A stretch of DNA of 64,000 bases from Candidatus Omnitrophota bacterium (GTDB lineage Bacteria; Omnitrophota; Omnitrophia; Omnitrophales; Aquincolibacteriaceae). The stretch lies in assembly GCA_043821445.1 (NCBI GenBank), contig JBDRCT010000031.1, positions 116,871 through 180,870 on the forward strand, written 5' to 3'. The notes beneath the pieces are model-generated. The model was given only the letters and a program-made list of their open reading frames with translations, did no database searches and had not been told where the DNA came from. Shown here in pieces: positions 23,328 through 64,000 of the stretch. Position 1 is the first letter of the stretch. Each line of letters opens with the position of its first letter. Made by a program: the position numbers and the translations under genes.

Positions 23328-23333
23328 AGGGCT

Positions 23334-30778: not shown

Positions 30779-30807
30779 ATTATGTTCGATTTAAAGACGG
30801 CGCACAA
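30779..30807 (-). promoter_or_regulatory. Second copy of the conserved sigma70-like promoter (TTGTGC-N17-CATAAT) upstream of TMTC-like paralog 5
   Basis: The 42-nt element 30777-30818 is about 38/42 identical to 28809-28850. It sits at the same distance from the start codon. Confidence 0.45.
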
Positions 30808-30931
30808 GTCTTTTGCCGCAAAAATCTTTCAAAAACAAGAAGACACCGGGCAACGAGGAATTTGGAGTTATACTTTAATGATCATGGCGACGAACAGGGC
30901 GCGATATATATTGCCGGCCCGGGATCCGGGA

Positions 30932-36894: not shown

Positions 36895-36925
36895 CGTCCA
36901 AGTCATTTTTTGAATTTTTTCATGG

Positions 36926-38524: not shown

Positions 38525-38537
38525 GGAGCGTTAGAAC

Positions 38538-41465: not shown

Positions 41466-41489
41466 GACAGGGGAGTCAAACGAAATCGC

Positions 41490-45118: not shown

Positions 45119-45544
45119 ATGAAAAAACAAAAAGGTTTCACACTGATAGAAGTTCTGATCGTGGTGGTGATCATAGGTGTTTTGGCAGCTTTGATCATTC
45201 CGCGGTTTTTAACGGCTCCGGAAAAGGCTATTGTTGCCGAGGCCAACCAGATGCTTGGCAGTATCATCCGTGCACAACAGGCGAACATCGATACGGGCGG
45301 CCCCTTTGTGAGCATTACCGATAATATTACAGTTGCAACCTGGGGCAAATTGCAAATGAATATACCCGGAGCTGCCGTAGTATCCGGTGCTGGCGCGAAG
45401 TTCAACTATACGTGCACCACGCCGAATTGTACGGCCGTACGTACTGGAACTGCTGCTAAATCCGTAGGCCGGAACCTTGCCGGAGTTTGGACCTGCGGCT
45501 CAGATTATACGACGATGACTTATGGAGGATGCACACTTGGTTAG
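45119..45544 (+). CDS. Type IV prepilin / pseudopilin (paralog 1)
   Basis: Class III leader MKKQKG|FTLIEVLIVVVIIGVLAALIIP. C-terminal 4-Cys D-region. Strong AGGAGGGG RBS. Confidence 0.9.
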   Translation: MKKQKGFTLIEVLIVVVIIGVLAALIIPRFLTAPEKAIVAEANQMLGSIIRAQQANIDTGGPFVSITDNITVATWGKLQMNIPGAAVVSGAGAKFNYTCTTPNCTAVRTGTAAKSVGRNLAGVWTCGSDYTTMTYGGCTLG

Positions 45545-45589
45545 TGAGGGCAGTGAATGAGTTTTTAATGCAATAACAAAGGAGGAAGT

Positions 45590-46024
45590 ATGAAAATGAA
45601 GAGAGGGAGCAGAGGTTTTACGCTGATAGAGGTTTTGATCGTGGTAGTGATCATAGGCGTTTTGGCAGCTTTGATCATTCCGCGGTTTTTAACGGCTCCG
45701 GAAAAGGCTATTGTTGCCGAGGCCAACCAGATGCTTGGCAGTATCATCCGTGCACAACAGGCGAACATCGATACGGGCGGCACGTTTATAACCCTTACCG
45801 ATAATGCGACAACTGCGACGTGGAACAAATTGGGCATGCAGCAACCCAATGCTGCTGTAGTATCCGGTGCCGGTGCAAAGTTCAACTATACGTGCACCAC
45901 GCCGAATTGTACGGCCGCACGTACTGGAACTGCCGCCAAATCCGTCGGTGTAAATCTTGGCGGAACTTGGACTTGCGGTTCGGATTATACGCTGTTGGCT
46001 TATGGAGGATGCACATTAGGGTAA
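45590..46024 (+). CDS. Type IV prepilin / pseudopilin (paralog 2, mosaic copy of paralog 1)
   Basis: G|FTLIEVLIVVVIIGVLAALIIPRF. About 120 nt at the N-terminus and about 100 nt at the C-terminus are identical in DNA to paralog 1. The central region is divergent. Confidence 0.9.
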   Translation: MKMKRGSRGFTLIEVLIVVVIIGVLAALIIPRFLTAPEKAIVAEANQMLGSIIRAQQANIDTGGTFITLTDNATTATWNKLGMQQPNAAVVSGAGAKFNYTCTTPNCTAARTGTAAKSVGVNLGGTWTCGSDYTLLAYGGCTLG

Positions 46025-46235
46025 AGTAGTATCCTGGAACGCCTTTTTAAATGAGTATTAGACACCCTGGGGCGGGTCGGTTTTTTGACCAGCCCGCTTC
46101 CGGGGGGTTCTTCAAAAAAAATAGGGCGATCCGGAGAAAAAGAGACGGTTTTAATCTATAGGATTGGTTGCTGGCCTTAGGTTGTAGGGTTTTCCACTTT
46201 TTAAAATGCTCAGTAGTGGGAGAGGACACGCTCTG

Positions 46236-46610
46236 ATGAAAGTCGAAAAAGGTTATACGATGACTGAGATTTTGATCGTGGTGGTCGTCCTTGGGATGTT
46301 GGCGGTCATGATCATCCCGCGTTACACCGGTCAAAGTGAGCGTGGGCTCGTTGCCGAGGCGGTCGCGATGCTTGGCAACATCCGTCAGGCCGAAGTGGCT
46401 TACCAGCTCGAGAATGCAGCGTTCACCACTAATTTGGCCAGCCTTGATATTGACACCTCGACTTCGACGAAGTTCACTTTCACAGTGAGTACGGCCGGAG
46501 CTGCGACCGCCGTGCGTACACCCGGCGGCGGCACGACCTTTAACAGCAAAACGATCATTTTAGATATTGCCGGAACTTGGTCTGGGGACCATCCGTTTAG
46601 GCCCATTTAA
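46236..46610 (+). CDS. Type IV prepilin-like protein (paralog 3, divergent)
   Basis: MKVEKG|YTMTEILIVVVVLGMLAVMIIPRY leader and hydrophobic helix. No Cys pair. The ORF track starts at 46206. Confidence 0.8.
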   Translation: MKVEKGYTMTEILIVVVVLGMLAVMIIPRYTGQSERGLVAEAVAMLGNIRQAEVAYQLENAAFTTNLASLDIDTSTSTKFTFTVSTAGAATAVRTPGGGTTFNSKTIILDIAGTWSGDHPFRPI

Positions 46611-46688: not shown

Positions 46689-47504
46689 ATGGTTGACAAG
46701 GACTGCCCCAATTTCGCGAGGCCGAAATTGATAAAAATTAGGACTGTCCTGATTCTCGAAAGACACGGAGGCCCGTGGGCGCCTTTGTTGACGGATTATC
46801 TAAGTGACATGCCGGCGGCCGTTTCAGTGATCGAAGAACCCGCGCAAGCCGCGCTCCATTTCGACAAGATCCTTCCCAGCGTTCTTTTCTCCGAGCCCTG
46901 TTTCTTAAGCAAGGCTTTTCTCCAAAAGATCAAAGTCCGTAAGAATACGGACCCGATGTTCCGGTTTTGCCTGCTCGGCGAACCTCCGGCGGGCGAAAAA
47001 ACAATTCTTTTTGATGCGGTTTTTCCGGCCCTTCCGTCCCAGATCGATCTCAATAGACGTTTTGTCGAAATGCTTCCGACACCTGAGTCCCTGCGGCTTC
47101 TGGTCGTCGATGATGAGGAAGAGATCGGGACAGTGGTCCGGGATTATTTTCATGGGCGAAAAGATCCCGCCTTCGTGATCACATGCACCGCGAACGGCAA
47201 GGAAGCGCTCGAAAGGGTTGCGCGCGAGCGCCCGGATGTGATCATCCTCGACATCAAAATGCCCGTGATGGACGGCCGCGAATTCTACGCAAAACTTAAG
47301 GCAACGAAACTCGAGATCCCTGTGATCGTTTTCTTCGATTCTATTTCCGGTGAGGAACTTTCCGAGATGCGCCGGTTTGGTAATCCGGCGGTGATCGAAA
47401 AAGGCGATAAGGGAAGCTCCCTCGGAGCGATGCTGCTCTTGGTGAAAAAGCTGGCATATTTCAGCAGACAAGAGACCGGGACCCCGGGGCATGAGAGATT
47501 TTAG
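46689..47504 (+). CDS. Response regulator, receiver domain only, with an N-terminal pseudo-receiver-like extension
   Basis: C-terminal REC (LLVVDDEEEIG...DVIILDIKMPVMDG...) with no output domain. The N-terminal ~130 aa is REC-like but lacks acidic pocket residues. Confidence 0.75.
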   Translation: MVDKDCPNFARPKLIKIRTVLILERHGGPWAPLLTDYLSDMPAAVSVIEEPAQAALHFDKILPSVLFSEPCFLSKAFLQKIKVRKNTDPMFRFCLLGEPPAGEKTILFDAVFPALPSQIDLNRRFVEMLPTPESLRLLVVDDEEEIGTVVRDYFHGRKDPAFVITCTANGKEALERVARERPDVIILDIKMPVMDGREFYAKLKATKLEIPVIVFFDSISGEELSEMRRFGNPAVIEKGDKGSSLGAMLLLVKKLAYFSRQETGTPGHERF

Positions 47505-50581: not shown

Positions 50582-52570
50582 ATGTTTATGAAAAAAATCT
50601 CTTTTTATCTCTTAGTGTTCTTTAGCGCCGCAGGTTTTTGCTTGTCCTCCTCCCAAGGACAAGCCTCGGAGAGCACGGTGCCGACGGCCGGTATTTCCAC
50701 AGCTTCCAAAGATGGATCCATTCCCGGCATAGATTCTCAGAAGAAGTCATGGTGGCGCCGATCTTTACCGGCGGTCACGGGTCAGGATTCACAGTCCCCA
50801 CCTGCTTCGGCGGCTCCCGTGGTTTCAAAAAAGTCTTCCCAGACGCCTAAACGCGCCCAAGAGCCTGTCGCTGTTCGCAAAAATGCGCCTCCTGCAAAGA
50901 TCGAGATCGTGAATGGAAAAGAAAAGAAAAGACAGAGCCAACGCAGAAGGGCCAAAGAGGAGGCTCGCGCGGAGGCCCTGGAAAAGGCCGTTGAGCAGCA
51001 GGTAGAAGCATTGCGGGCGGCGCGCGCGCGGGAAATGCCTTATTTGGACAAAGTCTATATCCGGACCAGCATTACACCGTTCAAGATCCAGCAGAAAGAG
51101 GCATTCCTAAGCGGCGGGAAGAAGGATCTCCAAGACCTCATTCTCCGCGCTCAATCCGTACACACCCAGGCCAAGGCCGCCCATGAGAATATCACGCTCT
51201 ATAACCGGCGTGTGCTTCTGGCCTTGCGGAAACTTTTCCCGGAGGTCTCGTTTAACTTCAATGATCGCGAAGGCCTGATCAACACCAATAATTTCACGGG
51301 AGACGATTGGCATGTCACGCTTCGCCAGCCCATCTTTAACGGAGGGGTCCTTTGGAATACGCTCCTGCAGGAAAAGGCGAGCCTGGAGGCTTCGAAAAAG
51401 CAATACGATAAGACCGTCGCCGATCTCGTGTTCGATCTTTCCCGTGCTTATTTTGAATACCAACGGACCTTGCAGACCGCCGAAGAACATCGTATTGCAG
51501 TGGAGAAGATGAAGCGCTTCGCGGAAATGTCGGAAGAGAAGTTCAACGAAAAGATCATTTCCGAGATCGAACATCTGAACGTACAGTCGCTTTACAGCCA
51601 GATGCAGTTCGATCTTGAGTCTGCGAATCAGGAACTGGAGATCGCGAAGCTCGATCTTCAGAAATATCTCGATCTTTCGGTGGACGATCAGTTCACGCTA
51701 GCCAAGATCTATGATCTTGGCGATGTAGTCGAAGGACAGGCGATCCCTGCGGGAAGTACGCCTGGAGACAAGAACCTACCCGATGTTTTTAAAGGTCAAG
51801 ATAAAGCGCCGGAACTTTCAAAATTGATCGACCTCTCGTATGAACATCGTCCGGAACTCCAGGTGGAGGCCGCGAAACTCCAGGTGATGCGACTCGGTGA
51901 GCGTATCCGGTGGGGCGAATTTTTGCCCAAGGCCAATCTGACCTATCAGTTCGGGGCGCTGGGTGAGGCTTATCTCAATAATGGCGCGGTTTATGGCGGT
52001 AGTGGTTATAACGCTAAAAACGAACCCATCCTGAAAAAAGAGTGGCAGCTCATGCTCGAAATGAACTGGAATGTCGGCGGCAATAAGATGAGTTATACTT
52101 TTTCCCGGGATAAAAAAGCACCATCCATTACACAGTTTGATCAGGCTTCAGGTACCATGCTTCGAAAGAACGGTCTCACTTTCGGGGTTCTGGATGGTCT
52201 GGATGCTTTTGTGAACGTGAAACAGGCCGAGGTCGACAAACTCAATCAGGTTGTGGAGTTGGAAAAGGCCGAAAAACAGGTGCTTCAGGACGTGAAACAG
52301 GCCTTTTACGACTATCAAAAATCCGTGATCCAGGTGAATTCCACGGTCAAGCGTTTGGAATATCGCAAACGCTTGCGCGAATTCGCCGAACACCGGCTGA
52401 GCAAAAAAGAGATCGAGCTTTCCGAATATCTTCAGGCCGAATCCGATCTTGTGCGCGAAAAGGCGGAACTTCACAAGGCTCTCAAGGAATATTTTTCGGC
52501 CAGGGCGGCGCTTAATCATGCGGTGGGTATCCAGAATTTCTTTAACATGGATAGCCCTCAGAAAAAGTAG
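50582..52570 (+). CDS. TolC-family outer membrane efflux protein with an extended N-terminal low-complexity region
   Basis: Signal peptide. About 150 aa of S/P/A/K/E-rich sequence, then two OEP-type repeats (coiled alpha-helical + beta) typical of TolC/OprM. Confidence 0.75.
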   Translation: MFMKKISFYLLVFFSAAGFCLSSSQGQASESTVPTAGISTASKDGSIPGIDSQKKSWWRRSLPAVTGQDSQSPPASAAPVVSKKSSQTPKRAQEPVAVRKNAPPAKIEIVNGKEKKRQSQRRRAKEEARAEALEKAVEQQVEALRAARAREMPYLDKVYIRTSITPFKIQQKEAFLSGGKKDLQDLILRAQSVHTQAKAAHENITLYNRRVLLALRKLFPEVSFNFNDREGLINTNNFTGDDWHVTLRQPIFNGGVLWNTLLQEKASLEASKKQYDKTVADLVFDLSRAYFEYQRTLQTAEEHRIAVEKMKRFAEMSEEKFNEKIISEIEHLNVQSLYSQMQFDLESANQELEIAKLDLQKYLDLSVDDQFTLAKIYDLGDVVEGQAIPAGSTPGDKNLPDVFKGQDKAPELSKLIDLSYEHRPELQVEAAKLQVMRLGERIRWGEFLPKANLTYQFGALGEAYLNNGAVYGGSGYNAKNEPILKKEWQLMLEMNWNVGGNKMSYTFSRDKKAPSITQFDQASGTMLRKNGLTFGVLDGLDAFVNVKQAEVDKLNQVVELEKAEKQVLQDVKQAFYDYQKSVIQVNSTVKRLEYRKRLREFAEHRLSKKEIELSEYLQAESDLVREKAELHKALKEYFSARAALNHAVGIQNFFNMDSPQKK

Positions 52571-52600
52571 GAACGGTTCCGAGGGCGGCAAAAGATTTTT

Positions 52601-54079
52601 TTGAAGGCACCATTTCAGACGGAGTTTAAAATGAACATGCAAAACGAAGATTATCCCGGGGACAAGAGTTCTCCGTTCAAGATCAGATCCCCCTCATCGG
52701 AAGGGCCGGCCAAAATGCCGTTTCAGATCCCAAAAAAAAATAAAAATACATGGTTTGATCGGAATAAAGTGCGTCTTGTTATTATCGCGGTCGCCGTAGC
52801 GGGGTTGTTTTTTGGGGGCAAGACGGTGATGGAGCGGTTCTTTAAGACTTCAAAGCCTTCTTTGAGTGAAACGATGAAACAGCAGCAACAGGTGGCCAAG
52901 GATGCGCCGGTGGCGGTCAAAGGTTTTAAGGTCGGCCGGTTCAATTATGAAGATTCCATGAACGTGCTTGGGACGATCAAGGGGTCTATGGAGCTGAAAC
53001 TCAGCTTCGAGATCCCGGGCGTGATCAGTTCGATCAATTACAAGGAAGGGGAGCGCTACGAAGAAGGCGCCCTGCTCGTCTCCTTGAAACAGGATGATAT
53101 TCTCTTGCGATTGAAAAGGGCCCAAGCGGCTTTCAATAAAGCGGAGTCCCAAGCCAAAGTGGCGGAGAACGAGGTCGCGGAGAATGAGAAACTTCTGAAG
53201 ATGGGGGCGATACCGCCGTCGACGGTAGAAAAAAAGAAATTAGAAATGGATGCCGCAAAATACGAAGCCGAGGCCCAGCGTCTTGAGATGAAGGCGAACG
53301 AGGCCATGCTCGAGAAGTCCAACCTTTACGCTCCTTCCTCCGGGATGCTGGGAGATCTGAACGTCGAGGAAGGGGAAAATATCAGCCAAAGCACGCTGAT
53401 CGGGACCCACATCAATATCGAATATGTTTATGCCGAGTTTGGGATCGTGGAGCGTGACGTCCAGAAGATCACGCTGGGACAGAAGGCCAAGGTCTTCGTG
53501 GACGCTTATCCGGATAAGACCTTTGAAGGCGTGATTGAAAATATTGCGCCGCAGATCTCGGGAACAAGCCGTACTTCTACGGCCAAGGTGCGTATTGAAA
53601 ATCCCGAAAGATTGCTGATGCCGGGTATGTTCGCCCGTGTTCGCATCATGCTTTACAGTAAGAAGGACGCTTTAGTGGTGCCGACGGATGCCATCCAGGG
53701 CGGTGAAGGCGAGAAGTTCGTTTATGTGATTAAAATGTCCGGAGGTTTCGCTTCCAATGCCATAGAATCCAAGGTCGCAGGAGTCATGGGGGGAGGGCTT
53801 GGCGCTGTGGCTGCGTTGAGCGCCGGGGCCAAGGGTCAGGAAAAGATCGAGAAGAAGAGCGGAAAAGAAGCCGGTAAGGCGACAAGAGAAAAAGATTCCT
53901 CCAGGATCGAGGAAGGCACCGCTGAGAAACGTCCTGTGACCGTGGGTTACACCCGCACCGACTACTCTCAGATCGATGCGGGCCTTACGGAAGGAGAGAT
54001 TGTCGTTATGACCGGGTTCGAGAGATTGGAGGATGGAAAGAAGATCCGCTTGATCGAAACCCAAGAAGCCGAGCTTTAG
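52601..54079 (+). CDS. Efflux RND periplasmic adaptor subunit (HlyD/MFP family)
   Basis: TM anchor, coiled-coil hairpin, lipoyl-like and beta-barrel domains. An alternative start at 52631 is possible. Confidence 0.82.
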   Translation: MKAPFQTEFKMNMQNEDYPGDKSSPFKIRSPSSEGPAKMPFQIPKKNKNTWFDRNKVRLVIIAVAVAGLFFGGKTVMERFFKTSKPSLSETMKQQQQVAKDAPVAVKGFKVGRFNYEDSMNVLGTIKGSMELKLSFEIPGVISSINYKEGERYEEGALLVSLKQDDILLRLKRAQAAFNKAESQAKVAENEVAENEKLLKMGAIPPSTVEKKKLEMDAAKYEAEAQRLEMKANEAMLEKSNLYAPSSGMLGDLNVEEGENISQSTLIGTHINIEYVYAEFGIVERDVQKITLGQKAKVFVDAYPDKTFEGVIENIAPQISGTSRTSTAKVRIENPERLLMPGMFARVRIMLYSKKDALVVPTDAIQGGEGEKFVYVIKMSGGFASNAIESKVAGVMGGGLGAVAALSAGAKGQEKIEKKSGKEAGKATREKDSSRIEEGTAEKRPVTVGYTRTDYSQIDAGLTEGEIVVMTGFERLEDGKKIRLIETQEAEL

Positions 54080-54123
54080 CGTTATGCGGACGAGCAAAGA
54101 TCTCCGCAGAATGATCCCCCCCT

Positions 54124-57100
54124 ATGAGCCTTCCTGAATTCGCGATCAAGAAAAAGGTCACCGTTTACATGTTCACGCTCGGACTGGTTCTCCTGGGCGT
54201 TCTTTCTTTCAAACGTCTGCCGCAAGACCTTTTCCCTCCGATTACGTTCCCTCAGGTCACGATTGTTACCGATTATTCGAACGCAGCGCCCGAAGAGATC
54301 GAGACGCTCATCACGCGCGTGGTGGAGGAAGCGATCGGGTCCGTTTCCGGATTGAAACGCATTGAATCCATTTCGCGCGAAGGACGCAGCACCATCATGG
54401 CGTCCTTCAATTGGGGTCAGGATATTGATTTCGCAGCACTGGCTGTTCGCGAAAAGGTCGATCTGATCAAGGAAAGGCTTCCCAAGGAGGCCGAAGATCC
54501 CGTGGTTTTGAAGTTCGATCCTCTTGCCCGTCCGATTCTCCTGCTTTCCGTCACAGCTCCGGATCTTCCTCCTGTGCGCATGAAACTCTTGACCGAGAAA
54601 ATGGTCAAAGATCGCCTGGAAAAGGTGGAGGGGGTCGCCTCGGTAAATCTTTCGGGCGGTGTGAATCGCGAGATCTTGGTGGAGATTGACCAGCCGCGCC
54701 TTCAAGCCAACCATCTTTCGCTTCTTGAGGTCGTCAATTCGCTTGATGAAGCCAATGTGTCCTATCCCGCGGGCAGCATCAAAAAGGGTCTTTATGAATA
54801 TCTGATCCGGACGGTCGGAGATTTCCGTTCGCCGGCCGAGATCGGATATGCCGTGGTCGGGGTTGACAACGTGGAAAAACTCCGCAGGGAAGATATAAGC
54901 TTTGTCGAGCGCGACACGAGCGAGGGTCCCCGCCGGACGATCGAGAGATTGCGGGGAGAGGTTGAAAAGCAGATGCTCGAGAAGCGCCTTGTGACCGTCA
55001 AGGATATCGGGAATGTGGTGGACGGGCTGGCGGGCAAGACCAGTATTTCCCGTTATAATGGGGCCGAAAATATTTCCGTGGCCATTCAAAAACAGTCGAA
55101 TGCGAACACCATTCAGGTCGTGGACAAACTTCGTAAGGAGCTGAAATTCCTCGAAGAGGATCTCAATTCCCGCGGGCTTCAGGTCAAGATCATTTACGAC
55201 CACTCCATTTTTATCCGCAATACGATCGAAAACCTGGCTCATGAGGCCATACAGGGCGGTGTTTTGGCTCTGATCACGCTCTACATCTATCTTCGCGCTA
55301 TCGCGATGTCGGTCCTGGTGGTCGTGTCGCTGCCACTGACCATTTTGGGCGTGTTTTTCCTGATGGCTATGGCGGGGGTCACGGTCAACATCATGTCCCT
55401 CGGAGGGCTCGCGATCGCCATCGGGATGATCTTAGACACCAGCATTGTGGTGCTGGAGAATGTTTTTCGCAAACGCCAGGAGGGCGCCAATGCGGAACAG
55501 GGTGCTATCGACGGCGCTACGGAAGTGGTATGGCCTGTGGTGTCCTCCAATCTGACCACAATCGCCGTATTTTTTCCTTTGATCGTATTTGTGCCGGGCG
55601 TCGCGGGCCAGATCTTCAAGGATCTCGCCTGGGCGATCATTTTTTCGCAGATCATCTCGACTTTCATCCCGTTGACTCTGATAACGTTGCTTTCTACTTA
55701 TGTGGCAGTGAATCAGCAGGAGTACAAGCCGCTTAGCCTCACGGGTGACCTGGATCAAAGGATCATGGCGATGCCCACAAAAACGGGGCAAAATCGTTTT
55801 ATGACCGGGATCCTAATTACCGCGTTCGTGGTGCTTGCATCGACTTTTCTGATAGTTCCGACCATTGACCGCGAGGTTTTGCCAAAAGTAGACCAAGGGC
55901 AGTTCTACGTGAAGGTCGATATGCCGCTCGGGACGCGACTCAATGTTACCGACGGAATTTGTAGGCGACTGGAAGAAATATTGCGTTCGGAGGATGCTGT
56001 CCAGGATATTTCTATCGCGATCGGCAGCGAAAAAACGAGTCGCGGAGAGATCAAGATCGAAACCCTCCGGCCTTCTCAAGCGCTTATCCTTGTGACACTC
56101 GACAGGAAAAGGAAGCAGTCATCCTCCAAGATCGTGGCTTTGCTCAAGAAAGAAATCGAGGCGACGAACTTCGAGAAAGATGAAGCTAGGGTTGAATTCG
56201 TGCTTCAGGAAAGCGAATTCTCGGTCGGGGCCGGCAGTATCAAGCCGATCCTGATCGAGGCCAAAGGATACGATTTTACGGCTATGGAAGGTCTTGTGAA
56301 CCGGCTCAAGGAGCGCCTTGGCGCGATCTCGGGGATCATCAATATCCAGGATGACATCGGGGAGAAAACGCCCGAAACGAAACTCGAGATCAATAAAAAG
56401 CGCGCGGCTCTTTATGGGATTTCCGCGATGGATGTTTCGCTCACAGCGAAAGCGGCCATTGAAGGCGTGGTCGCGACGCAGTACCGTGAGGCGGGCCGCG
56501 AGATCGATGTGCGGGTCAGGTTGAGCGATAAAGACAAGGAGAACATCTCGAATCTTGGCACTTTGTTGCTTTACTCAAAGGTCTTGGACATTCACGTTCC
56601 TCTGAAGGAGATCGCCCAGATCAATCGAGGACAGGGGCCGAGCGAGATACGGCGCATGGACCAGGAGCGCACGGTGACCATTTCGGCCGAGATCGATAAG
56701 ACCCGTCAGGACAAAGATGTTCTCGCCGATGTCCAAAAGTTCCTCGCGGGGTTGAAGGTTCCCGACGACATCCCGCAGGATTTCCAGGTCAGACTTTCCG
56801 GTAAAGCCAAGGAGATCAAAGAGAATTTCGGAGGCGTTATTTTCGCGTTCGTGCTCGCCATCATGCTCGTTTATATGATCATGGCCGCCCAGTTCGAGTC
56901 TTTTCTGCAGCCCCTGATCATTATGGTCACTGTGCCACTTTCGTTCGGGGGTGCGCTCATCGCTTTAAAAGTGACCGGGAGCTCCTTTAACGTGATCTCG
57001 CTTTTGGGTCTCGTGCTTTTGGGCGGCGTGGTCGTGGGCAACGGGATCGTGCTGATGGAATATATCAACCAGCTCCGTTCGGAAGGTAAGGAGATGGTCG

Positions 57101-57381
57101 CCGCCGTATGGGAGGCGGTGCGCACGAGAACGCGCCCCGTGCTCATGTCGTCCACCACGACTATTATGGGCATGTTCCCGATCGCTCTCGGGCTTGGAGA
57201 GGGCGGTGGGCTTCTGTCGCCTCTGGCCATTACGGCCATGGGCGGTCTTTTCTCTTCCACGGTGCTGACGCTGATCGTGCTTCCGTGTCTTTACATTATC
57301 GTGAACCGGTTCATGGAAAAGTATCTTGGTTACGAGGAAGAGACCGTTGAAGAAAGCTCCGCAACGCCTCCTTCGGCCTGA
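54124..57381 (+). CDS. RND efflux permease (AcrB/CzcA superfamily), subunit 1
   Basis: 1085 aa, 12 TM helices with two large periplasmic loops, and conserved TM4/TM10 regions. Confidence 0.9.
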   Translation: MSLPEFAIKKKVTVYMFTLGLVLLGVLSFKRLPQDLFPPITFPQVTIVTDYSNAAPEEIETLITRVVEEAIGSVSGLKRIESISREGRSTIMASFNWGQDIDFAALAVREKVDLIKERLPKEAEDPVVLKFDPLARPILLLSVTAPDLPPVRMKLLTEKMVKDRLEKVEGVASVNLSGGVNREILVEIDQPRLQANHLSLLEVVNSLDEANVSYPAGSIKKGLYEYLIRTVGDFRSPAEIGYAVVGVDNVEKLRREDISFVERDTSEGPRRTIERLRGEVEKQMLEKRLVTVKDIGNVVDGLAGKTSISRYNGAENISVAIQKQSNANTIQVVDKLRKELKFLEEDLNSRGLQVKIIYDHSIFIRNTIENLAHEAIQGGVLALITLYIYLRAIAMSVLVVVSLPLTILGVFFLMAMAGVTVNIMSLGGLAIAIGMILDTSIVVLENVFRKRQEGANAEQGAIDGATEVVWPVVSSNLTTIAVFFPLIVFVPGVAGQIFKDLAWAIIFSQIISTFIPLTLITLLSTYVAVNQQEYKPLSLTGDLDQRIMAMPTKTGQNRFMTGILITAFVVLASTFLIVPTIDREVLPKVDQGQFYVKVDMPLGTRLNVTDGICRRLEEILRSEDAVQDISIAIGSEKTSRGEIKIETLRPSQALILVTLDRKRKQSSSKIVALLKKEIEATNFEKDEARVEFVLQESEFSVGAGSIKPILIEAKGYDFTAMEGLVNRLKERLGAISGIINIQDDIGEKTPETKLEINKKRAALYGISAMDVSLTAKAAIEGVVATQYREAGREIDVRVRLSDKDKENISNLGTLLLYSKVLDIHVPLKEIAQINRGQGPSEIRRMDQERTVTISAEIDKTRQDKDVLADVQKFLAGLKVPDDIPQDFQVRLSGKAKEIKENFGGVIFAFVLAIMLVYMIMAAQFESFLQPLIIMVTVPLSFGGALIALKVTGSSFNVISLLGLVLLGGVVVGNGIVLMEYINQLRSEGKEMVAAVWEAVRTRTRPVLMSSTTTIMGMFPIALGLGEGGGLLSPLAITAMGGLFSSTVLTLIVLPCLYIIVNRFMEKYLGYEEETVEESSATPPSA

Positions 57382-57383
57382 TC

Positions 57384-60300
57384 ATGGGAATCCCAAGTTT
57401 CGCGCTTAAGCGTCCGGTTTTTACAGCCATCCTTTTTGTCGGGGTAATCGTTATCGGTATGATCTCCCTCATGCGCCTGAAAGTGGAACTCTATCAGGGC
57501 CAAAGCCAGGGAATCATATCGATCGTAGTGCGTGCCCGCGGCGGGTTACCCTCCCAGGACGTTGAAAAGATGATCACCAAACCCATTGAAGAAGCCATTG
57601 GGACCGTGAGCCACATGAAGGGCCTCTATTCCAGTTCGCGCGAAGCAGAGTCACGCGTAACCATGGAGTTCGATGCCGGCACGGATATGAAGTTCGCTGC
57701 GCTTGAGGTCCGGGAAAAATTTGCGCGTGTCAAACCCCTTCTTCCCAAGGAAATTGAAAAGCCCGTGATCGCCAATTACGATGACGCACAGGCCGCTATC
57801 ATGGTGTTCGCGGCGACTTCTGAGAACATGGCCCCGGAAGAGATCCGCGAAATGGTGGACATTAAACTCAAGCCGGTCCTGAGTCGCGTGGATGGAGTCG
57901 CGAGCGTGGAGGTCTATGGAGGAAGGGAACGCAAGATCCTGGTAGAGCTCGATCGCGACAAGATGGTGGCCTATAACATCTCGATCGAGCGTGTCATGGA
58001 TGTGCTGGGTCAGAGCAATATCAATCTCCTGGCCGGGAATGTTGAAACCGGAAAGTTCGAATATGCGGTCCGGAGCATGGGCTCTTTTCTCACGGTGGAC
58101 GAAGTCGGGGACATCGGCGTGAAGGCCACCCGGCAGGGGTCCATCATTCCGCTCAGGGAGATAGGGACCATTAAGGACTCCTATCTCGAGGCTACGGACC
58201 AAGCGCGTCTGAATCTGGAGCAGAACGTCACGGTCTACGTTAAAAAAGCGAGTATGGCCAATACCCTGGATGTCGCGAGGGATCTCAATCGAGTCCTGGA
58301 TCTATTTGAACAGGAGAATAAAGCACATATCAAGATCGTGGTCGTCAATGACCGGGCAGAAACGATCTCGCGTGCGATCGACGACGTCAAAGGGGCGCTC
58401 TATTTGGGGCTGGTTCTGATCATGGGCGTCATTTATGTTTTTATCCGTAACTGGGTGCTGGCGGCCATCATCCTGGTCGTGATCCCGTGTTCTTTGATCG
58501 CAACGTTCATTTTCATGGCGGCCTTTGGTATCAGCATCAATGTCATGACCCTAAGCGGGCTGGCGCTCGCGATCGGCATTTTGATCGACACCGCGGTCGT
58601 GATCCTGGAAAACATTTTTTCAAAAAAAGAGCGGGGCTTCGGGGACACGCAGGCCATCCGGGAAGGGAGCGAAGAAGTGTGGCTTCCGCTTCTGGCGTCG
58701 CTCTTGACGATGCTCGTGGTGTTCCTGCCGATCATTTTTATCGATAAGACCGTCCAGCTGACGTATGGCGGGTTCGCGTTTACCATCAGTATTTCTCTTA
58801 TCGCATCATTTTTTTCGGCGCTCATGCTTATTCCCATGCTCATTCGCCAGTTCGGGATCGCGGCGCTTAATGCTCACCGCAAGGACACCTCGAGCGCTTT
58901 CATCGATAAGGCGCGGGAAAAATATGTGAAGGCTATTCGCTGGTGTATTGCCTGGCGATGGAAGGTCGTGCCTGCGGTTTTCGGGCTCTGTTTTTTGGCC
59001 ATTTTTTTGCTGGTCCGCACACCGATTGACTGGCCCTCGTCCTTTGAGGAGAACGAATTTGCGATCGTCACGTTCCCGTTGGCCGGCGCGCGTTTGGAAT
59101 CGAATGACGAGGCCATGAAAAAGCTCGAAGAGATCCTCTCGAAGATCCCGGACGTCACTCTCTTCTCAACGACCGTTTCAAAGGACGATCTGCGGCTTTT
59201 TGTCCGCTTGAAACCCGCCCGCAAGCGCCAGTATTCCAAGGACGAGATCATGAAGATCATTGATGAGCAGGGGAACGCCGCGGTCAAGGAGATCCACAGC
59301 GATTACAGCTTGATCGTGGACGAAGGCGCCGGCTCCTCCGAACAGAAAAAACTCGTGGTGAATATCTACGGTCAGAACGGGGATGAGCTTGAGAAACTCG
59401 CCAAGGAGTTTGCCAACAAGATGTCCAAAGTGGACGGTTTGACCAATCTGGTCATGACGGACCTTCGCAAGCGTCCGGAGTATTCGCTTGTGGTGGACAA
59501 GGGAAAATCCGCGATGTACGGGCTTAGCGTGAAAACAGTTGCCGACAGCATGCATGCCCAAGTCCGCGGTATGCGGCCCACGAAATTCCATGAGCTTTCT
59601 AAAGGCGAGGAGATTGAAACCATCACACGGCTCCAGGCCATTTACCGCCAGAAGCTTGACGATCTGGGACAGATCTATGTCCAGACCAAGGAAGCCAGGC
59701 AAGTTCCTTTAAGTGAGATCGCCAACTTCTATCCGTCGACCGGTCCGCAAACCATTGATCGCAAAGACAAGCACCGGTATGTATTCGTCAAAGGGGATGT
59801 GAAGCGGCCGATCGAAAAGATCGCGGTCGATGTCAAAAAAGCCGTGAAAGATATAAAGCTTCCCGATGATTATTACTGGCGTTTCGGCGGCGGATACGAA
59901 GAACTGATGGAGAGTAAATCCCAGTTGGCGGTCGCTCTTCTGATCACGGTCTTTCTGGTCTATATGGTCATGGCCTGTCTTTTTGAGAATTATTTATATC
60001 CCTTCCTGATCATGATCAAGATTCTGCTTAATTTTATCGGGATCTGGGCGGCATTGGCCATCACGCGCAAGCCTCTCAGCACCCAGGTTTTTATCGGGAT
60101 GATCATGCTTGCCGGATACTCGGTGAATGCGGCGATCCTTCTGGTGGACCACGCCCTTCATTTAACCGATGAGAAGAGCAAAAAAGAGCGTTTTATCCAA
60201 GCCGGCGTGGACCGGCTACGACCCATTTTGATGACGGCCATTGCGGCGATTCTTGGATTTTTGCCCATGGCGATGAGTTTTGGCCAGGCGAGCGATCTCT

Positions 60301-60482
60301 GGTCGCCCCTGGCGGTGACCATTATCGGAGGGCTTATCAGTTCGACCATTCTGATCCTTTTCGTTTTGCCGGCGCTTGTAATGATCACGGATGATATCCG
60401 GGAAATTTTTAAAGCTTTTTTTTCGGGCGTATCTGAGAAGATACAGGCCCTTTCAGCGAACAAAGCGATCCAGAGTCCTTAA
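57384..60482 (+). CDS. RND efflux permease (AcrB/CzcA superfamily), subunit 2
   Basis: 1032 aa. Tandem to the first permease, which suggests a heteromeric MdtBC-like arrangement. Confidence 0.9.
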   Translation: MGIPSFALKRPVFTAILFVGVIVIGMISLMRLKVELYQGQSQGIISIVVRARGGLPSQDVEKMITKPIEEAIGTVSHMKGLYSSSREAESRVTMEFDAGTDMKFAALEVREKFARVKPLLPKEIEKPVIANYDDAQAAIMVFAATSENMAPEEIREMVDIKLKPVLSRVDGVASVEVYGGRERKILVELDRDKMVAYNISIERVMDVLGQSNINLLAGNVETGKFEYAVRSMGSFLTVDEVGDIGVKATRQGSIIPLREIGTIKDSYLEATDQARLNLEQNVTVYVKKASMANTLDVARDLNRVLDLFEQENKAHIKIVVVNDRAETISRAIDDVKGALYLGLVLIMGVIYVFIRNWVLAAIILVVIPCSLIATFIFMAAFGISINVMTLSGLALAIGILIDTAVVILENIFSKKERGFGDTQAIREGSEEVWLPLLASLLTMLVVFLPIIFIDKTVQLTYGGFAFTISISLIASFFSALMLIPMLIRQFGIAALNAHRKDTSSAFIDKAREKYVKAIRWCIAWRWKVVPAVFGLCFLAIFLLVRTPIDWPSSFEENEFAIVTFPLAGARLESNDEAMKKLEEILSKIPDVTLFSTTVSKDDLRLFVRLKPARKRQYSKDEIMKIIDEQGNAAVKEIHSDYSLIVDEGAGSSEQKKLVVNIYGQNGDELEKLAKEFANKMSKVDGLTNLVMTDLRKRPEYSLVVDKGKSAMYGLSVKTVADSMHAQVRGMRPTKFHELSKGEEIETITRLQAIYRQKLDDLGQIYVQTKEARQVPLSEIANFYPSTGPQTIDRKDKHRYVFVKGDVKRPIEKIAVDVKKAVKDIKLPDDYYWRFGGGYEELMESKSQLAVALLITVFLVYMVMACLFENYLYPFLIMIKILLNFIGIWAALAITRKPLSTQVFIGMIMLAGYSVNAAILLVDHALHLTDEKSKKERFIQAGVDRLRPILMTAIAAILGFLPMAMSFGQASDLWSPLAVTIIGGLISSTILILFVLPALVMITDDIREIFKAFFSGVSEKIQALSANKAIQSP

Positions 60483-60538
60483 AATTTAACTGAGAAACAT
60501 CACTTCCGTTCCTCAAGGGACGGATAAAGGAGACATCT

Positions 60539-61135
60539 ATGGAAACGAAAGCGGACGGGCAGGCTAAGATCACGACTCATCGTACCAACAAACGCCAGGC
60601 GAAGAATCTCATCATCCATCGCCCCATGCAGCGGGAATTTTCGTTTATGTTGATCGCTCTTTTCATGGTGGCTTCGGCGGCGGTTGCTTGGGTCATTCAT
60701 CAAACCATCCGTGATGCGGCCTTCGGAGGGGCTTTTACTTTCGGGAAGGTCAATCCCTCCGAGATCCTCTATGACGTGAGTTACTCGATCATCATTCGCG
60801 TGACCCTGGTGTTGATCCTTACGCTGATCATTATTGGTGCTTATGGCGTGGTCTTTCTCCATCGCGTGGCCGGTCCGGTTTACCGGTTCCGCCAAACCTT
60901 ACTGAGAGTGAATCGCGGAGAAATGCCCCAGGACATCAAGCTTCGTGAGGGGGATTTTTTCCACGATATGGCCCATGATATTAACATCGTTCTGAAACGC
61001 CTTCGCTCGGAACAAAGTAAGATCTCGGAACTTAAGACAAAAATGAACGATCTTGAGAAAAGCGCATTGTCGGAGGACGTTCGTCAGAAGACCGAAGACA
61101 TGAAGACGGTCCTGGATTCCTTCTCAAAGCTTTAG
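60539..61135 (+). CDS. Hypothetical membrane protein (2 TM helices plus a cytoplasmic helical domain)
   Basis: 198 aa. TM helices around residues 40-60 and 95-118, with an amphipathic HAMP-like C-terminal helix. No recognisable catalytic motif. Confidence 0.5.
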   Translation: METKADGQAKITTHRTNKRQAKNLIIHRPMQREFSFMLIALFMVASAAVAWVIHQTIRDAAFGGAFTFGKVNPSEILYDVSYSIIIRVTLVLILTLIIIGAYGVVFLHRVAGPVYRFRQTLLRVNRGEMPQDIKLREGDFFHDMAHDINIVLKRLRSEQSKISELKTKMNDLEKSALSEDVRQKTEDMKTVLDSFSKL

Positions 61136-61345
61136 GTTAGAGTTTCTGCAACTCATTTCGTAGCAACGGGATGCGATTTTTTTGAGAGATATCTAAAGAT
61201 CCATGGGGGTGGACAGGTCGTTCCGGAGAAATCTCGCAAGCTTTAAACTTTTTTTGTCGGACCCCTTGTCTTTATCTTTTTAAAAGAGTATACTTCTTTC
61301 GACCCTCGCCATGCAGTATCATTTCACGAAAGGAGTAACAAAAAA

Positions 61346-61951
61346 ATGAAGAAGGTTAATAGCAGTTTGACATTAGCGCTCGTTGCGTTGATGGTCGTCG
61401 GTTTTGGAGTTGCCGCATACGCAGCTCCCGCGGCGAACGAGCTTGTGATCGCGGATTTTGACACCGGGGACAAGCCGAATAATATCGGCGGTGATTTCGG
61501 TGGATGGGACAAGGACCCGAACGATGAGTCCCAGGGAACCCAGATGTCTTTCGATACGGACGATAGCCAAGGGGATGCTGCCGGCTATGCGATTCGCCTC
61601 GATTACGATGTGGATTCTCCGAATCCGGCTTACAACGGTTTCTGGATGAAGCTGAACGGCGAGGATGCAACGGCTTACAACACCCTCAATTTCTACGTCA
61701 AGGGGGATGCCAAGGCCGGTTACACCAAGCGTTTCAAGATCGAGCTCAAGGACATGACGAACAAGCCTTCTGCGTATATCGTGAGCGGCATCACGGACCA
61801 GTGGCAAAAGATCTCGATCCCGTTCGAAAAGTTCCGTCGTATTGAAAACTGGAACTCTTTGAACGAGCTTGTCTTCGTTTTCGACGATATCAACTCCAGT
61901 CCGAAGACCGGGAGCATTTTGATCGACCAGATCACGTTCTCGAAGCAATAA
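61346..61951 (+). CDS. Secreted hypothetical protein with a jelly-roll/CBM-like composition
   Basis: Signal peptide MKKVNSSLTLALVALMVVGFGVAAYA. Gly/Asp/Asn-rich beta-sandwich-like sequence. RBS AGGAG. Followed by a rho-independent terminator. Confidence 0.6.
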   Translation: MKKVNSSLTLALVALMVVGFGVAAYAAPAANELVIADFDTGDKPNNIGGDFGGWDKDPNDESQGTQMSFDTDDSQGDAAGYAIRLDYDVDSPNPAYNGFWMKLNGEDATAYNTLNFYVKGDAKAGYTKRFKIELKDMTNKPSAYIVSGITDQWQKISIPFEKFRRIENWNSLNELVFVFDDINSSPKTGSILIDQITFSKQ

Positions 61952-61983
61952 TCGAGGCGTTTTTTGGGAGAAGTTGTTTCCAA

Positions 61984-62019
61984 GCAGCCCCGCTTTAAAA
62001 AGCGGGGCTGCTTTTTTTT
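61984..62019 (+). terminator. Rho-independent terminator
   Basis: GCAGCCCCGCTTT-aaa-AAGCGGGGCTGC perfect 13-bp stem followed by T8. Confidence 0.85.
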
Positions 62020-62238
62020 GTCCCCGCCCCCATTTCTCAAAACACACTTTCTGTCGAGGCGGTATTCAACTATCCGGCAGAGAATTCTTTCCTTGGAAGA
62101 TCCGGTCTCAGGGGTTAAAAGCCCACGGTTTCGGCCGATAATGTGAGAGTGTCCTGGCATAGGATAACTCCGGGGTCTCGAGGCCATGGATGTCAGGGGA
62201 GGCGGCCCAGTACCCGGAGTTCATAGAGGGTACCCTTG

Positions 62239-63810
62239 ATGGAAAAAAACGACGGCGTTTTTGTCATAAGCGCAAGCCGTATACTGCCCGCCAAGCGGTG
62301 GCAGGTTCTGCGTCTGCTCACGCGCGTTCAGGATTTCCCGCGTTTTTTACCCAATATCCTGGAATGTAAGGTCCTTTCCCGGGAGCGGAATCGCGTGGTC
62401 AGTTCCTGGCTCGTGGAAATGGAAAAGGTCCCGATCTCCTGGACGGAAGAAGAGGTCCTGGACCTTCGCCAATTCACGATCCGTTTCACGGCCCTGAAGG
62501 GCGACTTGGAGAAGTTCGAAGGCTTCTGGAAACTTGCGGAGCATCCTTCCGGAGGCACCGAACTTTTTGTCGAAGCCACCATCAAACTCGGCATTCCGGT
62601 ATTCGAGGTGGTAGCCGGAGGGATCATTGCGGCCAAAGTTCATCGCTATTTTGAATCGCTCCTAAGGGCTTTTGAAGAAGAGCTATCCAAGCGCCGCTAC
62701 GGTGGGTTGAAGGACCGCTCACCGAAGAAGGTCTCCGGCTTCGGTGTGATCGGCCATCCCTACAACATTCAGCATCTCATGAACTTTTTTCAGGCCCATC
62801 AACAAAGCCGGGCGATCCCCTCACCGGAATTTCTTGCGAAGATCTTTGAAATGACGCCCTCGTTCGAAGCGGATGCGATCCAGGAGTTCCGTTCTGCGAC
62901 TGGAAAGACCGTGAACGGCTCTCTGATCATCTGCAACATCATTCCGGACATGCTGGACCTGGACATCGGACAAGCGGTCCGCAAGGTGGTGGACGCCTGT
63001 AAGCTCGCGGAGCGCTGCGGATTCGGCATTGTGGCACTCGGCGGCTTCACGTCGATCGCAAGCGAACGTTTTGGCGATGAATTCCTTAAAATGGTGCACA
63101 TCCCCGTGACGACCGGCAACACGCTGACGGCCGCACTCGCGGTCGAACAAGTGAAAAAGGCGGCGGAACTCATGGAGCTGGATCTTTCAAAGGCGAGCGT
63201 GACGATCCTGGGTGGGGCAGGCGATATCGGGAGCGGCTGTGCGCGCGGGTTGGCCGACAAAGTCCGCGAGATCACGGTTACGAGCCGCACGGGCAAGAGT
63301 TTCGGTTGGATCAAGCGTGAGATCGCGAAGGCGGGAAAGGCGAAGGTCCGGACGAGTCTCAGCAACCGGGATGCCGTCAAAAACGCCGACATCGTGATCG
63401 CGGCCACAAGCGCGCATAAGTCCATCGTAGACGTCTCGAACCTCAAGCCCGGCGCGATCGTCTGCGACATCGGCTTTCCGAAGAACATCTCTTATTCCAG
63501 GAGTGATCGCCAGGACATCCTGGTCTTTTCAGGAGGCATCTGCGAGATCCCGTGCGACTTCCGCAATTCGTTCGATCACGGTCTTCCGAACACGAAGATC
63601 CTCTACGGGTGTTTTTCCGAGGCGATCGTGCTCGCGCTCGAGGAGCGTTTTGAACGTTTCTCATGGGGAAAAGGGAACATCACTAAGGAAAAAATGGCGG
63701 AGATCCTCGGATTAGCGGCCAAACACGGGTTTTATCCCGCGCCCTTTTTCTGGGGAGAACGGCTCTTGTCGGACAACGAGATCCGCTCGATCCGCGCCGT
63801 GTCCTTGTAG
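62239..63810 (+). CDS. Fusion protein: N-terminal SRPBCC (polyketide-cyclase/START-like) domain + C-terminal acyl-ACP reductase (cyanobacterial AAR)-like NAD(P)-binding domain
   Basis: The C-terminal ~360 aa matches cyanobacterial AAR motifs as I recall them (GVIGH, ALGGFTSI, TTGNTLTA, GGAGDIGSG, FSWGKGNITKEKM...HGF). The N-terminal ~150 aa is SRPBCC-like. Confidence 0.6.
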   Translation: MEKNDGVFVISASRILPAKRWQVLRLLTRVQDFPRFLPNILECKVLSRERNRVVSSWLVEMEKVPISWTEEEVLDLRQFTIRFTALKGDLEKFEGFWKLAEHPSGGTELFVEATIKLGIPVFEVVAGGIIAAKVHRYFESLLRAFEEELSKRRYGGLKDRSPKKVSGFGVIGHPYNIQHLMNFFQAHQQSRAIPSPEFLAKIFEMTPSFEADAIQEFRSATGKTVNGSLIICNIIPDMLDLDIGQAVRKVVDACKLAERCGFGIVALGGFTSIASERFGDEFLKMVHIPVTTGNTLTAALAVEQVKKAAELMELDLSKASVTILGGAGDIGSGCARGLADKVREITVTSRTGKSFGWIKREIAKAGKAKVRTSLSNRDAVKNADIVIAATSAHKSIVDVSNLKPGAIVCDIGFPKNISYSRSDRQDILVFSGGICEIPCDFRNSFDHGLPNTKILYGCFSEAIVLALEERFERFSWGKGNITKEKMAEILGLAAKHGFYPAPFFWGERLLSDNEIRSIRAVSL

Positions 63811-64000
63811 AACGTAATACGAGTAACGCGCCGGGCCGCGGTTCCAGGCGCTCAACGGGGAGGACGGTCCTTGCTCGAATCTTTTTCATTCAACTGGTAC
63901 GCGCTTCCCGTGGGAGGGATCGGCATCCTGATGTTCCTCACGGGATTTTTCATCTATCTCCAGAACCGCCGCTCTCCCGTCAATCTCTCTTTTTTTCTGA

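Follow-up and report, generated by a model that had tools for sequence, protein, structure and literature searches.

The reductases of the acyl-ACP (acyl carrier protein) reductase (AAR) type known to have been characterised belong only to cyanobacterial alkane synthesis or, when fused to aminotransferases, to pyrrole-alkaloid pathways. A ping-pong mechanism centred on a Cys is established for AAR (S. elongatus orf1594; 6JZQ/6JZY; TIGR04058; EC 1.2.1.80), and has been proposed by homology for PigE. Related reductases hand the aldehyde to a bound partner: AAR to ADO via a tunnel opening at its N-terminal subdomain, the PigE reductase to the aminotransferase to which it is fused, and glutamyl-tRNA reductase (GluTR) to GSAM. 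Here, we describe a gene near the end of a 64,000-nucleotide (nt) stretch of DNA, hereafter the window, from a Candidatus Omnitrophota bacterium (contig JBDRCT010000031.1). It encodes an AAR-like domain fused to an N-terminal SRPBCC domain, and its product is probably an aldehyde-forming thioester reductase. Full-text searches of the literature returned no account of a fusion between SRPBCC and acyl-ACP reductase or of AAR in Omnitrophota, and COG5322 turned up only with aminotransferase fusions. The protein combines two known folds, one catalytic and one for binding, in an architecture and an operon setting that we did not find described.

The complete coding sequence of the fusion (62239-63810, + strand) is an unbroken open reading frame (ORF) running from TTG 62236 or ATG 62239 to the stop codon at 63808-63810. 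ATG 62239, from which residues are numbered below, is likely to be the real start (TTG 62236 being the alternative), because it is preceded at 7 nt by AGAGGG and because P0001, an NCBI protein of 100% identity that bears the name 'SRPBCC family protein [Candidatus Omnitrophota bacterium]', is likewise 523 amino acids (aa) long. An SRPBCC/START-like helix-grip domain (residues 5-154; 62251-62700), delimited by Pfam, a match to 2d4r, Foldseek and DSSP on a structural model, is joined by a short linker of low confidence (residues 155-166, GGLKDRSPKKVS; 62701-62736; pLDDT <50 at residues 159-161) to an AAR-fold thioester-reductase domain (residues 167-523; 62737-63807), delimited by NCBIfam, PDB sequence matches and Foldseek. 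The latter opens with GFGVIGH, as AAR opens with FGLIGH. The structural model, generated by AlphaFold2 with 64 homologues as input, has a mean pLDDT of 89.5 and a pTM of 0.88; a pTM this high suggests a fixed packing of the two domains.

A preliminary description of this DNA had likened the C-terminal domain to AAR on the strength of four motifs, and all four are found in the translation: IVALGGFTSI, VTTGNTLTA (residues 290-298), GGAGDIGS (residues 325-332), and FSWGKGNITKEKMAEILGLAAKHGF (residues 474-498). Among NCBIfam models, TIGR04058 (long-chain acyl-ACP reductase) scores 169.5 bits (1.2e-49) over profile positions 5-336 of 339, and the PigE model NF053554 scores 170.9 bits across profile positions 2-354. 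In a phmmer comparison with S. elongatus AAR (6jzq), residues 178-502 align with E = 6.9e-39 (137 bits). PDB sequence matches also comprise PigE (4ppm; E = 1.2e-27) and the terminal amidation domain (TAD) of a nonribosomal peptide synthetase (NRPS; 2e-07). The top structural matches found by Foldseek are chains of the AAR-ADO complex (6jzy_A; E = 6.7e-27, target-normalised TM 0.85, 30% identity), with TAD coming next. The resemblance to AAR is thus far beyond chance. The possibility, raised in the same description, that the domain would be better explained as a GluTR or a shikimate dehydrogenase fails: the hemA (GluTR) and aroE (shikimate dehydrogenase) models score 35.8 and 16.6 bits (cutoffs 209.55 and 200.2) and match no more than the Rossmann part, and the domain retains the catalytic Cys. 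Pfam recognises only generic Rossmann families at residues 311-431, with Shikimate_DH on top.

We assessed the conservation of key residues in an alignment of 64 fused homologues displaying 46-86% identity. Cys458 (63610-63612), which is invariant in all 64, aligns with the catalytic Cys294 of AAR and with Cys296 of PigE. Indeed, HMMER alignments superimpose YGCFSEA of the fusion protein on FACFAEA of AAR and on NGCMAET of PigE, and the Cys458 column is occupied by Ser in the C294S mutant chain 6jzz. A TTGN motif (residues 291-294; 63109-63120) sits where the N-terminal subdomain meets the Rossmann one; in this motif, T291, G293, and N294 are invariant and T292 is found in 63 of the homologues; in the TAD structure, the equivalent Thr-Thr-Gly touches the catalytic Cys. 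The dinucleotide-binding loop GGAGDIGS (63211-63234) is the counterpart of 162-GATGDIG-168 in AAR, and its GGxGDIG core (residues 325-331) never varies. In AAR, R189, R193, and R314 grip the 2'-phosphate of NADPH and the 3'-phosphate of CoA. By alignment, the predicted phosphate pocket of the fusion protein contains Arg350 (63286-63288), equivalent to Arg189 and kept in 63 of 64 homologues, and Lys478 of FSWGK (63670-63672), equivalent to Arg314 and occupied by Lys in 56 homologues and Arg in 8. The position of R193 is taken by Ser or Asn with an adjacent Lys. The fusion protein thus has two of the three basic residues of this pocket, along with the three-subdomain fold, the catalytic Cys, GxxGDIG, TTGN, and FSWG...HGF of AAR. 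As judged from these residues, AAR ping-pong chemistry, in which the acyl group goes to the Cys, NADPH provides a hydride, and an aldehyde is released, has very probably been kept. Cys409-Asp410 (63463-63468; VCDIGFPKN in the fusion protein and LIDGGYPKN in AAR) is also invariant in 64 of 64.

TAD deserves attention, since this NRPS domain (CarI; 9E4S-9E56) has an AAR-like fold, an invariant Cys beside the nicotinamide, and the Thr-Thr-Gly. The Cys of the fusion protein might accordingly perform non-reductive chemistry (amidation, transthioesterification, or off-loading), or the SRPBCC domain might be a polyketide cyclase, with the AAR-like domain releasing the product from an ACP resembling those of type II polyketide synthases (PKS). 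Such a role would be in keeping with Foldseek matches of the SRPBCC domain to the ARO/CYC cyclases ZhuI, TcmN, and WhiE-VI, and with the paired KAS genes and ACP genes found in some related loci. We nevertheless regard it as quite improbable. Identity to TAD is 17-19%, versus 30% to AAR. TAD resides within NRPS modules and is NAD-specific via an Asp, whereas the fusion protein is found outside NRPS and its T-S-R/FSWGK phosphate pocket is of the NADPH-dependent AAR type. KAS genes, which are absent from the window, occur in about 8 of 91 loci and lie downstream of kinase genes. Their pairing as a type II PKS KS/CLF was considered and rejected, the active-site Cys being kept in both proteins, which makes them FabF-like.

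How closely the domain is related to cyanobacterial AAR is a separate matter. Its TIGR04058 score falls far below the equivalog cutoff of 449.7 bits, and the fusion protein is AAR-like by sequence without being an ortholog of the cyanobacterial enzyme. By the same kind of comparison, it is rather a member of a branch of the AAR/PigE thioester-reductase superfamily that is large and non-cyanobacterial. A search with the reductase domain of 1.84 billion representatives (clustered at 50% identity) yielded 2,523 relatives at E <= 1e-3, including 286 at E <= 1e-30. Many of these are stand-alone proteins of about 350-380 aa scoring 200-326 bits, compared with 137 bits for cyanobacterial AAR. The fusion protein also differs from AAR by its 166-residue N-terminal SRPBCC extension, by a ~20-residue C-terminal extension common with PigE, by its presence in another phylum, and by its location in a kinase operon instead of an alkane operon. 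In addition, the ADO-docking surface has changed. As assessed by HMMER alignment to AAR and the published interface residues (R73-H91 helix, R118, Y23/Y26), the Fr-II loop is 6 residues shorter, and the substitutions include R118 to H, R73 to D, K75 to G, and, at the tunnel exit, Y23 to S. The counterpart of Fr-I in the fusion protein reads PSxEFL (residues 194-199). That no ADO gene accompanies the fusion had been noticed at the outset, and this extends beyond the window, since neither the annotated genes of the window nor the families annotated around the gene in about 100 related loci include an ADO. It follows from these differences that a genuine cyanobacterial-type AAR, making alkanes with an ADO encoded elsewhere in the genome, is very hard to sustain, even if some records label homologues 'long-chain acyl-ACP reductase' and even if our analysis covered 64 kb of the genome.

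The scores of the reductase domain against PigE and against AAR are on a par. A second group of relevant systems is that of PigE, TamH, and KecF, the fusions of the prodigiosin MAP, tambjamine, and koreenceine pathways. In both cases the reductase is physically coupled to an acceptor of the aldehyde. In PigE, this is a C-terminal pyridoxal phosphate enzyme, whereas in the fusion protein it would be a non-catalytic lipid-binding domain at the N terminus. No aminotransferase domain is found in the fusion protein or in the window, and the whole-protein score of 850 bits is not reached. In some related loci, on the other hand, a class III aminotransferase is encoded by the next gene: a PigE-like protein in L011, L012, L043, and L088, and an Aminotran_3 protein in L094. 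The L043 protein finds its best NCBIfam match in the aminotransferase half of PigE (453 bits, profile positions 378-731). By sequence, the reductase and the aminotransferase next to it amount to a split PigE. By analogy, no other indirect evidence for aldehyde production by this branch is as strong as this arrangement.

The second claim made at the outset, that the fusion contains an SRPBCC/START-Bet v 1-like domain, was borne out. The N-terminal domain matches Polyketide_cyc (PF03364) at residues 18-131 with 54.9 bits (1.3e-14; cutoff 23.4) and Polyketide_cyc2 (PF10604) with 34.3 bits (3.5e-08; gathering score 27.4). Its best match in both sequence and structure is TTHA0849 (2D4R), a START-like protein of the RatA/Coq10 type of SRPBCC (PF03364), with 28% identity, E = 1.5e-12 among PDB sequences, and a target-normalised TM of 0.89 in Foldseek, where other helix-grip proteins also match. 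Unlike the fusion, TTHA0849 and its kin are stand-alone proteins of ~145 aa. The order of elements assigned by DSSP on the model is that of a helix-grip fold (beta-alpha-alpha-beta6-long alpha), with the long C-terminal helix at residues 120-154. Both the profile matches and the model place the domain in the SRPBCC/START-Bet v 1 superfamily, and its predicted hydrophobic cavity may bind lipids. The domain contains a Cys43 (62365-62367) that is kept in at least 90% of homologues. It can be speculated that Cys43 and Cys409 form a hemithioacetal with the aldehyde, or act as a redox switch.

Among the closest parallels for such a combination are the mammalian proteins Them1/ACOT11 (StarD14) and ACOT12 (StarD15), in which an acyl-thioester enzyme is likewise joined to a START/SRPBCC domain. 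These differ in having a hotdog thioesterase fold and a C-terminal START domain, in being eukaryotic, and in hydrolysing rather than reducing the thioester.

We propose that the fusion protein works in the cytoplasm as an NADPH-dependent reductase of acyl thioesters, belonging to the AAR/PigE superfamily and bearing an N-terminal lipid-binding SRPBCC domain. An acyl-ACP or acyl-CoA would first occupy the cleft and its acyl group would move to Cys458; NADPH would later take the same cleft and reduce the acyl-enzyme thioester, yielding a free fatty aldehyde. The pocket of the SRPBCC domain, which is tethered 12 residues ahead of the segment equivalent to Fr-I of AAR (the tunnel exit and ADO-docking face), would accept the insoluble and reactive aldehyde, or hold the acyl chain, in place of the ADO, the PigE aminotransferase domain, or the GSAM of related reductases. 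From there, the product could go on to the membrane, a tailoring enzyme, or a kinase.

The last of these recipients is suggested by the downstream gene. The 5' end of a histidine-kinase gene, cut by the end of the window, starts at a TTG 60 nt past the stop codon of the fusion gene (63871-64000, + strand), with GGAGG 8 nt upstream. In a blastx search with the last 190 nt of the window, the product of this 5' end is 72-86% identical to the N termini of kinases in three related loci (L002-L004), which Pfam annotates as HisKA_7TM-GAF. To place this in context, 88 loci were retrieved, 8 from genomes and 80 from metagenomes, with fusions 43-88% identical to ours, and ORFs were called in 94 sequences and clustered by BLASTP. 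The commonest neighbour is a HisKA_7TM histidine kinase, usually organised as 7TM-GAF-HisKA-HATPase_c (~730 aa) and at times a shorter 7TM kinase (~465 aa). Where at least 3 kb of downstream sequence is available, 64 of 67 loci encode such a kinase among the five ORFs that follow, and 45 a single-domain receiver; the three loci without a kinase either run out of sequence behind an intervening SDR gene or contain a 1,615-aa unannotated ORF. The first kinase is always on the same strand as the fusion gene (66/66), and in 36 loci the two are directly adjacent, with a median gap of 1 nt. The link is kept in fusions that are only ~30% identical (L094 and L095), where the regulators are receiver (REC)-HD and REC-guanylate cyclase proteins, and in PilZ-containing fusions (L096-L098), including a 4-nt overlap of start and stop codons in L097.

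Signals in the flanking DNA agree with a transcription unit that begins at the fusion gene. A strong intrinsic terminator (61982-62013, + strand; 14-bp stem with 9 GC pairs, followed by T8) lies just 3' of a CBM11-like gene and closes the upstream RND/CBM11-like operon, so that the fusion gene opens a new unit. It is preceded by a sigma-70-like promoter candidate (TTAAAA-16-GATAAT; 62115-62142, + strand), a weak match to the consensus. No terminator was detected in the 60 nt that separate the fusion gene from the kinase start, and an Rfam scan of the leader and gene returned the terminator hairpin only. Co-transcription of the fusion gene with the HisKA_7TM-GAF kinase gene is thus part of our proposal.

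Because this operon with a 7TM-GAF kinase is near-obligate, it suggests that the product of the enzyme is a cue within the kinase pathway. The aldehyde, or an amine, alcohol, or ester derived from it in lineages with tailoring genes, would be a membrane-soluble cue, and the reductase most likely a signal synthase. The arrangement is reminiscent of CqsA-CqsS, LqsA-LqsS, RpfF-RpfC, and PhcB-PhcS, in which the gene for an enzyme acting on fatty-acyl thioesters also shares an operon with a response-regulator gene and the gene for a polytopic histidine kinase of the membrane. Some fusion loci further resemble those of autoinducer synthase/kinase pairs by their methyltransferase and enoyl-CoA-hydratase genes. 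The likeness is one of gene organisation only, the sensor part of the kinases in fusion loci being HisKA_7TM plus GAF, and none of the CqsA, LqsA, RpfF, and PhcB family models matched the fusion protein in Pfam and NCBIfam scans. We would give about even chances to the full model, in which the SRPBCC domain is a carrier and the fusion protein forms a functional unit with the kinase. That it synthesises the very ligand of the HisKA_7TM-GAF kinase, the two being a synthase-receptor pair, is a tentative and rather doubtful step further.

Genes near the fusion vary between lineages. A 197-aa PlsC/Aas-like acyl-ACP acyltransferase adjoins it in 26 loci, and a 74-aa HTH_17 gene is present in 24 loci; 13 loci contain a stand-alone AAR-like paralogue, in the order HTH_17, AAR-like, acyltransferase, fusion. 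Other neighbours are a methyltransferase (18 loci), an HpnA/OleD-like SDR of 337 or about 886 aa (about 15 loci), a GMC oxidoreductase (6 loci), a FadL/TodX outer-membrane channel (5 loci), a class III aminotransferase plus GNAT (4 loci), and, in a few loci each, ACP, FabG, FabZ, enoyl-CoA hydratase, a 4HBT thioesterase, and an ICMT/PEMT-type methyltransferase. The acyltransferase, SDR, or GMC oxidoreductase is directly adjacent to the fusion gene in lineages other than those with the aminotransferase. In the window genome, no tailoring gene adjoins the fusion gene. Genes for the transport of hydrophobic compounds are found nearby, an RND/MFP/OEP system in the clade of the window and FadL/TodX in other clades. 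In one clade (L072, L075, L076, L051, L054, L060, L065, L069, and L082), an AAR-like paralogue (~335 aa) and the 197-aa acyltransferase are encoded directly upstream of the fusion; the paralogue lies about 1.6 kb upstream, and these operons thus encode two reductases.

The main rival to a signalling role starts from these neighbours. The aldehyde might serve structural lipids (fatty alcohols, ether/wax lipids, or amino lipids) that the SRPBCC domain shuttles to the membrane, with a two-component system that only regulates or monitors the envelope under stress and a product that is no signal. There is a model for such control in DesK/DesR, which regulate the des desaturase gene, and an integral 7TM sensor could read the state of the bilayer. 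The acyltransferase adjoining the fusion gene would suit such a pathway, as would the HpnA-like SDRs, the KAS/ACP/FabG/FabZ set, the ICMT/PEMT-type methyltransferase, and the nearby RND, MMPL, and FadL transporters. A regulon of this kind sits poorly, however, with adjacent regulators that are mostly REC-only, REC-HD, or REC-cyclase proteins and not of the DNA-binding kind, which is a misfit with simple transcriptional control. Moreover, the tailoring enzymes change from lineage to lineage (aminotransferase plus GNAT, GMC oxidoreductase, SDR, or none), which looks more like the diversification of a small molecule than like a core lipid, and the window genome has neither a tailoring nor an acyltransferase gene beside the fusion gene. 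We therefore consider an envelope-lipid role possible, yet short of likely.

The preliminary description had also called the architecture distinct. This holds insofar as we found no counterpart in literature searches, but the fusion is not rare. A word-indexed search returned 436 homologues, and we inspected the best 120 clusters (90% identity), whose members are 46-100% identical to the query. These share the fused architecture in about 520-540 aa, with a few shorter entries (480-502 aa, 90-94% query coverage), and each entry named for an organism is Candidatus Omnitrophota. The fusion is thus common in this phylum, with at least 120 clusters at 90% identity and hundreds of copies in metagenomes. 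In databases, the homologues go under names that are unspecific or at odds with each other ('SRPBCC family protein', 'predicted amino acid dehydrogenase/ribosome-associated toxin RatA', 'long-chain acyl-ACP reductase'). TabE, called a 'novel acyl-ACP reductase', was rejected as a relative, being ALDH-type and unrelated.

More distant relatives, with reductase domains 29-36% identical to that of the window, are plain SRPBCC-reductase fusions, PilZ-SRPBCC-reductase and HTH_17-PilZ-SRPBCC-reductase proteins, a reductase-GAF protein from a Myxococcales metagenome-assembled genome (MAG), and proteins whose N-terminal region, about 300-360 aa long, is unrecognised. Examples are a 722-aa HTH_17-PilZ-SRPBCC-reductase (L096, 1083-3251) and a 781-aa PilZ-SRPBCC-reductase (L097, 715-3060), both followed by a 7TM kinase gene. 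Going by their domains, the PilZ forms imply an input of cyclic di-GMP, and the HTH_17 forms possibly DNA binding, on the enzyme polypeptide itself. The Myxococcales protein (L100, 7111-10175) consists of an AAR-like reductase with a C-terminal GAF (724 aa); genes for an ACP and a FabA/ApeI-like dehydratase lie upstream, and Ser/Thr kinases and GAF-cyclases flank it. A specific kinship of its GAF (P0268) with those of the partner kinases was considered and rejected, the best E-value being 0.02.

The closest stand-alone relative of the reductase domain, P0280 (42% identity, E = 7e-100), belongs to a split form of the system (L099, 7552-9092), in which a gene for a 148-aa SRPBCC protein is followed after 3 nt by a gene for a 363-aa AAR-like protein. 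The SRPBCC protein is 30% identical to the N-terminal domain of the window protein (E = 1e-24), and a TPP-dependent enzyme and a BcrAD/BadFG-type ATPase are encoded after the pair. The existence of both fused and split versions is independent evidence that SRPBCC and reductase work together. In a neighbour-joining tree of the reductase domain, the fused proteins form two groups with stand-alone forms interspersed; the tree carries no support values and therefore bears on neither a single fusion event nor several.

The additional PilZ, HTH_17, and GAF domains of these relatives invite a further alternative, in which the SRPBCC domain would be an allosteric lipid sensor, as in the START domains of Them1/ACOT11 and ACOT12, or the whole protein a ligand-binding co-sensor of the kinase with catalysis secondary, as in PYR/PYL. 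The latter are START proteins that modulate PP2C phosphatases, and PYL receptors are among the Foldseek matches of the fusion; the link with the kinase is also tight, start and stop codons often overlapping. Nonetheless, selection on catalysis is indicated by the invariance of all catalytic and cofactor residues in 64 divergent homologues, and the downstream PigE-like aminotransferases imply a real aldehyde product. A primarily sensory protein is for these reasons improbable.

Several points weigh against our proposal of a reductase that supplies a kinase pathway. The formation of aldehyde or alcohol by this branch is deduced from sequence, and TAD illustrates that an AAR fold with a conserved Cys is able to do other chemistry. 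The AAR score is so far under the equivalog cutoff that substrate and chain length are not transferable from AAR, and the SRPBCC pocket is only presumed to face the exit of the acyl tunnel. From adjacency, a signal synthase looks the same as an enzyme under the control of a two-component system or one that forms the output of such a system. The reverse direction, with the enzyme as output of the pathway, is indeed possible, because REC-only, REC-HD, and REC-cyclase regulators and the PilZ/HTH_17 fusions fit it, the fusions and the REC-HD and REC-cyclase regulators at least as well as they fit the signal-synthase reading. The split version (L099) has no histidine kinase nearby, and as the homologues named for an organism all come from one phylum, part of the synteny may reflect shared ancestry. 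Finally, the RND genes of the window, which might have hinted at export, are parted from the fusion gene by the strong terminator.

If the reductase does make the ligand of the kinase, this would be a bacterial lipid signal of a new chemical class in Omnitrophota, an uncultured phylum, with an aldehyde diversified by lineage into amines, N-acyl amines, alcohols, or esters via tailoring genes. The product would also be the first ligand class for the orphan sensor domain HisKA_7TM (PF16927), which full-text searches found mentioned only as a sensor domain, with no ligand described, and in some lineages the system would receive a cyclic di-GMP input through PilZ. The kinase link gives a testable candidate for what HisKA_7TM-GAF sensors perceive, and a first handle on lipid signalling or envelope control in Omnitrophota, which are mostly uncultured, very small, and possibly host-dependent bacteria. 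This branch appears to handle its aldehyde with a built-in lipid-binding domain, not with a second enzyme, which would widen the principle of the docked acceptor, and it may offer engineers a compact, possibly more soluble, aldehyde-producing enzyme. Were the link merely regulatory, hundreds of proteins that currently go by 'SRPBCC family protein' or 'predicted amino acid dehydrogenase / RatA toxin' would still gain a useful functional annotation.

The operon upstream of the fusion gene (50582-61951, + strand) encodes an outer-membrane efflux protein, an HlyD-type adaptor, two tandem RND pumps, a 198-aa protein with two transmembrane segments and no Pfam match (60539-61135), and a secreted CBM_11-like protein of 201 aa (61346-61951). 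In the clade of the window, about 20 loci with identities as low as 59% keep this gene order ahead of the fusion gene. We left the RND genes out of the functional unit, because of the intervening terminator and because they are absent in other clades.

The rest of the window contains several other gene groups. Genes for three radical-SAM proteins, B12-binding domains being recognisable in two of them, for a SAM methyltransferase, and for a flavin amine-oxidase-like protein (13009-20317, + strand) may form a cassette for the modification of lipids or natural products, with no evident tie to the fusion gene. Six tandem paralogous genes (21525-32857, - strand) encode membrane proteins of ~580-640 aa with near-identical N termini, an unusually large local expansion. 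Pfam scans of two of these proteins found C-terminal TPR in both and, in one (30932-32857), an N-terminal region resembling a PMT_2-like glycosyltransferase. A type IV pilus/type II secretion-like block (35119-46610, + strand) ends with three tandem pseudopilin-like paralogues (45119-46610) sharing the conserved N terminus GFTLIEVLIVVVIIGVLAA, after which comes the gene for a 271-aa receiver-domain protein (46689-47504).

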